Virus record (IMG/VR): IMGVR_UViG_2778261181_000004
DNA length: 34,379 nt
Source of the DNA: a virus
Taxonomy: Duplodnaviria > Heunggongvirae > Uroviricota > Caudoviricetes
Strand: one strand, 5' to 3'
The translations under genes were made by a program, and so were the position numbers. The notes below the pieces were generated by a model. It saw only the letters and a program-made list of their open reading frames with translations. It had not been told where the DNA came from and did no database searches. Positions 1,481 through 2,525 of the stretch are shown one piece after another. Within the stretch, counting starts at the first letter, position 1, and the number at the start of each line of letters is the position of its first letter.

Positions 1481-1954
1481 ATGTACAGCCCGGTACAAAT
1501 AGCCAATAAATTCATAACGTTGGGAAACCAACATCATAATCCTCTGACCCACATGCAACTGCAGAAGCTTACTTATATTGCCCATGGTTACTATTTAGCA
1601 TTAACAGGTAAGCCTTTGCTCAACGAATGTGTCTCTGCGTGGAAGTACGGTCCGGTTATTCCCGGAATGTACGATGCTTTCAAAGATTATGGGAATAAGC
1701 CTGTTACGAATGTAGCAGTAGCTCCTTTTGGTGGCATTGTTACTATGGATCCGCAAGCAGAGAGCATTATAGGGGCTGTTTATAAATTTTACGGCTCGAA
1801 AAATGGAATTGAGTTATCAACTCTAACTCATATGCCAGGTACGCCTTGGTCACAAACTTATAATGGTATTGGCTCGTCAATCATCCCAGATGATGCGATC
1901 AAGACTTATTATCATGATTTATTGAATAACCGACAGCAATGTCAGGGCCTCTGA
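1481..1954 (+). CDS. Panacea-domain (DUF4065; SocA/GepA-like) protein, candidate antitoxin / phage-associated protein
   Basis: ATG 1481 preceded by AGGAGGGTGG; product carries the motif pattern KLQKLxYxAxGxxLALxGxPLxxExxxAWKYGPVxPxxYxxFKxYG that I associate with DUF4065; the ORF-track start at 1466 is less likely. Confidence 0.65.
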   Translation: MYSPVQIANKFITLGNQHHNPLTHMQLQKLTYIAHGYYLALTGKPLLNECVSAWKYGPVIPGMYDAFKDYGNKPVTNVAVAPFGGIVTMDPQAESIIGAVYKFYGSKNGIELSTLTHMPGTPWSQTYNGIGSSIIPDDAIKTYYHDLLNNRQQCQGL

Positions 1955-1976
1955 AAAAGTAATATTCAGGGATGAC

Positions 1977-2525
1977 ATGTCTCGCAATTCAGATATCTAT
2001 AAACTTATCGGAGCGGCTGCAGGTGTTGAAAATGGTCGCTCTGAAGCATCCTTAAACTATACTGACAGTCAAGAACAGGTTTTTAAATCTGCATTTGAGC
2101 CGTCTAATCATGAGAGCGATGATGATTCTTCTTCAGAAAATAAAGCTATTCTGGAGGAAGAAGAGTTTGGTTCTAATACAGGTGCATTGCATGAGTTTAT
2201 GCAGCAGCACAGAATGGACAGTCTTCAAGCTCAGCTTGATATGCTCAAATCACAAGTACGCGATAAGATAGCTGACGCAACTGGTAAAGAAATAGACAAT
2301 GAACTTCGGACAAAAATGGCATCATTCACGGTTTGTTTTATGTCGTGGTGGTGCTTGTTTGTAGCCGTAATGTTTGTTTCGTTTCTTATTGCTCATGAAG
2401 GAAAGCCTCCAGTTGAAGCAATCGTTGCATTACTAGGTACAAGTACAATTAGCATTGTTGGTTTGGTTGGCTTCGTTGTTAGTGGATTGTTCAAATCAAG
2501 AAAAGATGGCGATAAAGAAAAATAA
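1977..2525 (+). CDS. Membrane protein with acidic N-terminal region and two C-terminal transmembrane helices; candidate toxin/effector partner of the Panacea protein
   Basis: Begins 22 nt after the upstream stop; hydrophobic segments FTVCFMSWWCLFVAVMFVSFLIA and AIVALLGTSTISIVGLVGFVVSGLF; no recognisable enzymatic motif. Confidence 0.6.
   Translation: MSRNSDIYKLIGAAAGVENGRSEASLNYTDSQEQVFKSAFEPSNHESDDDSSSENKAILEEEEFGSNTGALHEFMQQHRMDSLQAQLDMLKSQVRDKIADATGKEIDNELRTKMASFTVCFMSWWCLFVAVMFVSFLIAHEGKPPVEAIVALLGTSTISIVGLVGFVVSGLFKSRKDGDKEK

Follow-up and report, generated by a model that had tools for sequence, protein, structure and literature searches.

The gene pair and its identity

The stretch of DNA considered here, the IMG/VR virus record IMGVR_UViG_2778261181_000004 (34,379 nucleotides, Caudoviricetes; 'the window' in the following), carries at positions 1481-2525 two plus-strand genes, panA and panT, separated by a gap of exactly 22 nt (1955-1976). 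The first encodes a protein with a standalone Panacea domain, the second a membrane protein. An earlier note, drawn up from the nucleotide sequence alone, had recognized both genes and their spacing and had proposed a candidate toxin-antitoxin (TA) or abortive-infection module, located inside a prophage and behind SOS-box-like sites, but of a kind that it could not name. Both open reading frames (table 1) are confirmed by the analysis described below, and a name can now be given. With a probability of about 0.88, the pair is the Escherichia coli PanAT type II TA system of toxin cluster T3, its genes being accessory ones of a lambdoid prophage that is integrated at dusA, in which they lie at the attL end.

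The gene pair has already been published, named and tested as PanAT(Esc. col.), and that of the window is an allele of it. Indeed, the nine PanAT pairs validated experimentally by Kurata et al. 2022 (PMC8832971) include 'Escherichia coli STEC O31 PanA-PanT, membrane', made of the antitoxin WP_000287252.1 and the toxin WP_000019185.1 and entered in their dataset as cluster T3, order A|T, intergenic distance 22 and status TA. PanA of the window is identical to WP_000287252.1 at 153 of 157 positions (97.5%), and PanT to WP_000019185.1 at 172 of 182 (94.5%) over the full length, which places this PanT in cluster T3. Since these alleles have been shown to act as neutralizer and toxin, respectively, the TA character suggested in the earlier note holds. 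Locus order, 22-nt gap, domain content and predicted topology are all equal in the two pairs; relative to the window sequence, the STEC O31 proteins differ by four substitutions in PanA (T126A, P136S, D137N and T142A) and by ten in PanT, three of which fall within helix 1.

In RefSeq, both accessions are found together in E. coli STEC1588, at a locus with the order dusA fragment, panA, panT and PrtN-like gene. WP_000287252.1 occurs naturally with no fewer than six PanT alleles, and among these is one that is only 2 residues away from PanT of the window. DNA searches with the module led to phage records, and the phage record PV340566 (PhiR47_1, from ECOR13) already names the first gene PanA antitoxin and the second PanT toxin. 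Every feature of PanAT and of T3 membership that can be checked computationally is present in the window pair, while toxicity with rescue, published for this 95-97% identical pair, would carry over to the window allele by analogy.

Table 1. Features of the panAT locus and of its surroundings, in window coordinates.
Feature	Position	Strand	Description
dusA 5' fragment, displaced	1071..1175	+	left prophage junction (attL); RefSeq 'tRNA-dihydrouridine synthase, incomplete' at near-identical locus
sigma-70 promoter, presumed for panAT	1296..1323	+	TTGACA, 16-nt spacer, TATAAT; 12/12 consensus matches
putative LexA box 1, CTGTGTATATGTACAG	1342..1357		perfect core CTGT-N8-ACAG, 18 nt past the -10 hexamer; sequence-based
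LexA-like box 2, CTGGTTATAAACACAG	1365..1380		one core mismatch, 15/20; sequence-based
inverted repeat AACAGTGATGATACTGTT (1433-1450) and LexA-like box 3 CTGTTTGCACATTCAG (1446-1461)	1433..1461		overlapping; box 3 with one mismatch
panA	1481..1954	+	157 aa, standalone Panacea antitoxin, GPV at 56-58, no helix-turn-helix; Pfam PF13274, identity to WP_000287252.1
panT	1977..2525	+	182 aa, cluster T3 membrane toxin; acidic disordered N-terminus, long juxtamembrane helix, C-terminal two-helix hairpin
code for hydrophobic helix 1	2319..2393	+	PanT ~115-139; invariant positions TF-FM-WC-FV; hydropathy, alignment, AlphaFold2
code for hydrophobic helix 2	2415..2492	+	PanT ~147-172, near-invariant ALLGTSTISIVGLVGFVVSGLF; hydropathy, alignment, AlphaFold2
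hairpin, bidirectional terminator candidate	2520..2547		10-12 bp stems on both strands, overlaps panT stop codon
PrtN/excisionase-like gene	2559-2858	-	convergent with panT

The antitoxin PanA

PanA matches the Pfam family PF13274 (SocA_Panacea, DUF4065) over residues 27-123 with 66.2 bits (E = 6.2e-18), the gathering score being 25.7 bits. It also contains the Panacea GPV signature, G56-P57-V58 within WKYGPVIPG, a motif reported to be critical to neutralization. The start codon is ATG1481 and not ATG1466, because a Shine-Dalgarno sequence, GAGGAGGG, lies at 1468-1475, the homologues begin with MYSP or MYNP, and the RefSeq start is identical. Neither PanA nor the PanT profile retrieved a relative when the PDB was searched by sequence.

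The toxin PanT and its family

The acidic N-terminal half and the two C-terminal membrane helices that the second protein had been credited with are found concordantly by composition, hydropathy and structure prediction. Residues 1-75 have a net charge of -11 and a pI of 4.2; two hydrophobic segments emerge from a Kyte-Doolittle analysis (about 115-139 and 147-172), and a basic tail, KSRKDGDKEK, follows the second one. The AlphaFold2 model, with 22 homologues as input and a low mean pLDDT of 59.8 (70-84 in the transmembrane (TM) region), predicts a disordered acidic region at 17-56, a helix at 56-139, a HEGKPP loop at 140-145 and a second helix at 146-175.

Across 22 aligned sequences, the most distant of which are 33% identical, the N-terminal half of PanT is variable and of low complexity, and the invariant or nearly invariant positions are G103-IDN-LR...TF-FM-WC-FV and ALLGTSTISIVGLVGFVVSGLFKS; helix 2 is the best-conserved segment of the family down to that level of overall identity. 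A profile search of 1.84 billion representatives found 345 relatives (representatives at 50% identity, E<=1e-3), many of which are just 110-160 aa long and match the C-terminal module alone. PanT matches PHROG 13343 across its full length (E=7e-112), and has no accepted match among the curated families of Pfam, NCBIfam and PADLOC. The sub-gathering Pfam matches to DUF677, DUF2207_C, DUF2975 and IRK were dismissed as hydrophobic or coiled-coil noise.

Natural PanT alleles also swap residues within helix 1 (window 2334-2348): C120 and W124 are present in the window, W120 and C124 in the validated protein and in several others. One helical turn separates the two residues, and the swap looks compensatory. 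Residues 130, 131 and 134 vary among alleles as well.

Proposed mechanism of the pair

When produced alone, PanT of the published E. coli pair is toxic, and transcription, translation and replication are shut down together; the toxin depolarizes the inner membrane, the entry of SYTOX Green was interpreted as the formation of large pores, and growth is rescued by co-expressed PanA, whose neutralizing action needs neither ClpXP nor Lon (Kurata et al. 2022, PMC8832971). In the case of a Bartonella membrane toxin, mutagenesis supports the binding of the Panacea core to the N-terminal region and to the pre-TM helix of the toxin (Ernits et al. 2023).

For the window pair, PanT would anchor itself in the membrane and oligomerize through its glycine-rich, near-invariant C-terminal hairpin, which is taken as the membrane-active part because of its conservation in the alignment and of the short relatives that match this module alone. 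The standalone Panacea domain of PanA would bind the cytosolic N-terminal part and the juxtamembrane helix of PanT, holding the toxin away from the pore-competent state, as modelled for Bartonella PanT. At the level of expression, LexA bound at one to three boxes downstream of the sigma-70 promoter would block transcription of panAT; the pair would be quiet in a healthy lysogen and would come on in a burst during the SOS response, the inducing signal being the one that would also cleave the S24-type repressor of the prophage.

The prophage setting

The window begins in the bacterial chromosome, with a DUF2713 gene (1-708) followed by the displaced dusA fragment, whose coordinates derive from the mapping of positions 2872-2976 of a related locus (L003) onto the window; the lambdoid prophage, inserted into the 5' end of dusA, then extends from ~1174. 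Homology to the Stx2k phage OQ243220 begins by blastn at 1174, and this, together with the dusA/attL junction, bears out the prophage location proposed at the outset. In related genomes, zur, yjbJ and dinF are further chromosomal neighbours on the dusA side. The prophage opens with panAT, beside the PrtN/excisionase-like gene, and exonuclease, CI-like S24 repressor, lysozyme and terminase genes are found further downstream. The lysozyme gene (18621-19154) is 16 kb away from panT, which is not in a lysis-cassette position.

The prophage is a mosaic with respect to OQ243220, from which it differs in the immunity, lysis and structural regions; of the early region, just some parts are common to it and to phiSTEC1575-Stx2k. 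Its identification with the Stx2k phage phiSTEC1575 was rejected, as only 1174-3659, 4934-7854 and 11400-15150 match well (97-99% identical to OQ243220), and no stx gene was seen in the window. At 16867-17919, in the late-region slot where related phages carry stx, there is a DNA methylase gene (Pfam N6_N4_Mtase).

In the related phiSTEC1575-Stx2k, the integrase and a DinI-like gene are at the end opposite to panAT, and two perfect-core LexA boxes lie between them (L007, 45313-45356). In the circular phage genome, LexA-controlled cargo would thus flank attP on both sides. It may also be observed that IMG/VR prophage calls (L033, L034 and L036, among others) often begin exactly at the panA start codon. 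Automatic boundary callers trim off the promoter and the LexA region in this way and can misjudge whether panAT is phage cargo or not. The Kurata dataset flags the E. coli pair (GCF_000281775.1) as 'NotPhage', whereas the window pair clearly leads a prophage.

The upstream region and the putative control by LexA

The SOS-box-like sites mentioned in the earlier note correspond to one perfect-core box and to two boxes with one mismatch each, all located between the promoter and panA (table 1). The 20-mer of box 1 matches TACTG(TA)5CAGTA at 15 of 20 positions, and perfect CTGT-N8-ACAG sites occur twice in the 34-kb window, against 0.42 expected. The second such site (16877-16892) is inside the first codons of the N6_N4_Mtase gene and may be due to chance. 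The promoter is unchanged across 5 E. coli alleles, but in this region, which is 97% identical, conservation among alleles is uninformative on promoter and boxes, so that diverged homologues were used instead.

In Enterobacter L008, whose PanA and PanT are 75% and 64% identical to those of the window, a TTGACT-16-TATAAT promoter (11/12) is followed by a box 22 nt past the -10 hexamer. The homologues of Salmonella (L013) and Klebsiella (L028) have perfect LexA boxes that abut the Shine-Dalgarno sequence and align with box 3 of the window, and a Buttiauxella homologue has a perfect box at yet another position. Among diverged viral loci, a perfect box is present in 9 of 21, some of these probably belonging to a small upstream gene. 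The panA-leader inverted repeat AACAGTGAT(G/T)ATACTGTT is common to the window (1433-1450) and to Enterobacter L008 (3457-3474) despite the divergence of the surrounding DNA, and it could be a further operator. A structured 5' untranslated RNA or a riboswitch between promoter and panA was considered and rejected, the fold being no better than that of shuffled sequences (z=0.04).

That the palindromes arose by chance, or that they are arm-type att sites for integrase or Xis and not LexA operators, is an unlikely reading, although the attL junction is 170-290 bp away from the boxes, motifs with CAGTG are repeated over 1259-1465, and boxes 2 and 3 are imperfect. Indeed, panAT is accompanied by the promoter, the box and the inverted repeat also in Enterobacter L008, where phage-type genes (including a holin family gene) are upstream of the pair and chromosomal genes directly downstream; since the att junction is therefore not upstream of panA, the boxes can be argued not to be integrase arm sites. 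The independent perfect boxes of the Salmonella, Klebsiella and Buttiauxella homologues and the enrichment of boxes over background also speak against such a reading. External control by LexA is made plausible by the lack of a helix-turn-helix in PanA and by the argument of Ernits et al. 2023 that Panacea is not an autoregulator. On these grounds, control of panAT by LexA as part of the SOS response is a plausible proposal. No link between LexA and PanAT was found in the literature searched, and Kurata et al. 2022 discuss neither the promoter nor LexA boxes.

As for this enrichment, 5 of the 13 distinct gamma-proteobacterial loci have a perfect box in the 400 bp upstream, the background rate being 0.021 per 400 bp. 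The binomial P is 5e-6, and it becomes 5e-4 once the loci are merged into independent architectures; both values are optimistic because the compared loci are not phylogenetically independent. This caveat is one of several points that weigh against the reading of the locus as a whole. LexA binding is deduced from sequence, with a core mismatch in boxes 2 and 3, and a box near panA is mostly missing from the P2-type homologues. It is missing as well from Klebsiella pneumoniae L011, where a short deletion (~3470-3480) falls at the exact position of the box in the closest relatives (2472-2487 in L028, 3478-3493 in L013), which suggests that some lineages have lost a putative SOS control of panAT. 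Furthermore, the window allele departs from the validated pair by its 4 PanA and 10 PanT substitutions, including W120C, C124W and G131V in helix 1; direct binding between PanA and PanT is an extrapolation here, because the pull-downs of Kurata et al. 2022 (PMC8832971) cover five other PanAT pairs and the E. coli pair is not among them; and the search for a known defence system gave no match for either protein in PADLOC-DB v2 (none for PanT, one spurious at E=0.021 for PanA).

Relatives, spread and genomic positions

Of 5426 complete E. coli genomes, 79-85 carry the module, each in one copy on the chromosome, and the nine carriers examined all share the dusA/PrtN locus. Distant blastn searches of complete E. 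coli genomes with the window pair returned the same 79 genomes only, and L026, a P2-type pair from E. coli, had no megablast match in complete genomes. The association of the two genes is strict: wherever the DNA upstream of a PanT homologue is included, as in 20 genomic and 50 viral loci (70 in all), the homologue is immediately preceded by a PanA open reading frame, and the PanA-PanT order reaches the alphaproteobacteria (Caulobacter, Methylocystis and Niveispirillum).

The positions occupied by related pairs are accessory slots. In Klebsiella and Salmonella, homologous pairs are found where a prophage ends, adjoining DinI, and the Providencia pair lies between an antiterminator and a type I restriction-modification (RM) system. 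In P2-like prophages, the slot is bounded by gpA/DinI and by the portal gene, and the pair shares it with an RVT_1 gene, DUF4145 or a KAP NTPase. Among the genes immediately next to homologous pairs are an RVT_1 gene (L024, 3964-5724), a KAP NTPase (L027, 4066-6189) and a methylase/specificity pair of type I RM (L023, 3866-6495), which is typical defence-island company. The P2 gpA-gpQ region is a defence hotspot, in which a 'DUF4065 + hypothetical' cassette recurs (Rousset et al. 2022, Table S5).

Biological role

From the slots that it occupies, the likeliest role of panAT is phage exclusion or abortive infection, a role that is compatible with the TA mechanism outlined above. The infecting phage would inactivate or titrate PanA, or would trigger the SOS response, and the freed PanT would collapse the membrane before the phage cycle is completed. 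That anti-phage defence, as abortive infection or superinfection exclusion, is the main function of the pair is given somewhat less than an even chance. It is favoured by the residence in prophage accessory slots, including the P2 gpA-portal hotspot, by the recurrent cassette of Table S5 and by the RM neighbour of the Providencia pair; moreover, a function as trigger sensor has been suggested for Panacea by Ernits et al. 2023, who also showed defence by RmrTA, another membrane-depolarizing TA system. However, the PADLOC result given above does not support it, no phage assay of E. coli PanAT was found in the literature searched, and T3 membership of the partner in the Rousset cassette could not be established. 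Residence in a hotspot is itself only suggestive, as partition systems and virulence toxins share those hotspots (Rousset et al. 2022).

Addiction is the classical role of TA systems, and it was considered by Kurata et al. 2022 for those PanATs that are close to transposons and prophages, but it is an unlikely main function here. Cells that lose the prophage, or its attL-proximal DNA, would keep the toxin longer than the antitoxin, and the location of the pair at the very edge of the element, as well as its single copy at one and the same locus in the E. coli genomes examined, would fit stabilization of the element. Yet, with a neutralization that is independent of Lon and ClpXP, a differential stability of toxin and antitoxin is unproven; a LexA-repressed promoter implies a low basal expression, which is a poor fit to constitutive addiction; and the same pair moves among unrelated prophage types and slots.

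SOS-induced small membrane toxins have precedents in TisB, DinQ and HokE, and PanT could accordingly be pictured as an SOS-coupled membrane effector, either as a holin accessory at prophage induction or, like TisB, as a means to produce dormant depolarized cells under DNA damage. The candidate LexA boxes behind a consensus promoter are in keeping with this idea, as is the self-cleaving S24 type of the prophage repressor, by which repressor and panAT would both answer RecA*; the large pores of PanT and its layout, similar to that of class II holins with two helices and a charged C-terminal tail, point in the same direction. Such a function is nonetheless unlikely, for PanT has no match to a holin family in Pfam, the prophage carries its own lysis genes and, with the antitoxin co-transcribed upstream, induction alone need not free the toxin.

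A type VI mechanism similar to that of Caulobacter SocAB, with PanA as a proteolytic adaptor that passes the toxin to ClpXP, is highly improbable and already disfavoured, for PanA shares the Panacea/DUF4065 domain with SocA and matches the SocA_antitoxin equivalog model (NCBIfam NF047745, E=1.5e-28), but with 99.7 bits it is far under the cut-off of 190, and, whereas SocA works as an adaptor for ClpXP, PanA acts independently of ClpXP and Lon, and PanT is a membrane protein unrelated to the replication-blocking SocB.

Taken with the putative LexA control, the occupied prophage slots allow a tentative and still uncertain proposal, to which somewhat less than an even chance is again assigned: the T3 PanAT pairs may be SOS-wired, LexA-gated devices for exclusion or abortive infection, or induction-coupled membrane effectors. 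As the antitoxin lacks a DNA-binding domain, the operon would have passed its transcriptional control to the LexA of the host. DNA damage, prophage induction or an SOS-triggering phage would then elicit a burst of both the pore-forming toxin and the sensor-antitoxin.

Comparison with other systems

Outside cluster T3, there is a likeness with the PanAT pair of Bartonella apis/choladocola (T12, or NetFlax D11; Kurata et al. 2022, Ernits et al. 2023). Here, too, the antitoxin is a standalone Panacea protein, and its partner is a pore-forming, membrane-depolarizing toxin, charged at the N-terminus and with TM helices at the C-terminus, whose N-terminal region and pre-TM helix are contacted by the Panacea core. 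That toxin, however, belongs to another cluster, whose homology to T3 was left open by the authors, and the two are likened here by description.

TisB/IstR-1, DinQ/AgrB and HokE are type I TA systems, with toxic peptides of 27-50 aa and RNA antitoxins. They share with panAT a membrane-depolarizing toxin under a LexA box, with the proviso that for panAT the control by LexA is only inferred, and they differ from it in that PanT has 182 aa and its antitoxin is a protein, co-transcribed upstream.

Class II holins and the RosmerTA toxin RmrT resemble PanT in the membrane hairpin of two helices, followed by a charged tail at the C-terminus, in pore formation and in being part of a phage-borne module, although no holin or Rosmer family match was found for PanT in Pfam and PADLOC. 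PanT is distinguished from them by its 114-aa cytosolic extension, by its dedicated Panacea partner and by its site outside the lysis cassette.

Significance

The result mostly confirms that a real TA pair can be picked from raw sequence, while the pair that the earlier note had been unable to name proves to be a known one. Beyond the published work, it adds the probable control by LexA, the steady residence in accessory or hotspot positions of prophages, and the correction of the 'NotPhage' label. In prophages integrated at dusA, some of them Stx-converting, panAT comes first among the cargo, and homologous pairs are present also in P2 defence hotspots. The recurrent candidate LexA boxes provide a concrete hypothesis on when the toxin is deployed and, if the hypothesis is true, the LexA-gated PanAT would be the first protein-antitoxin membrane TA system of the E. 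coli SOS regulon.

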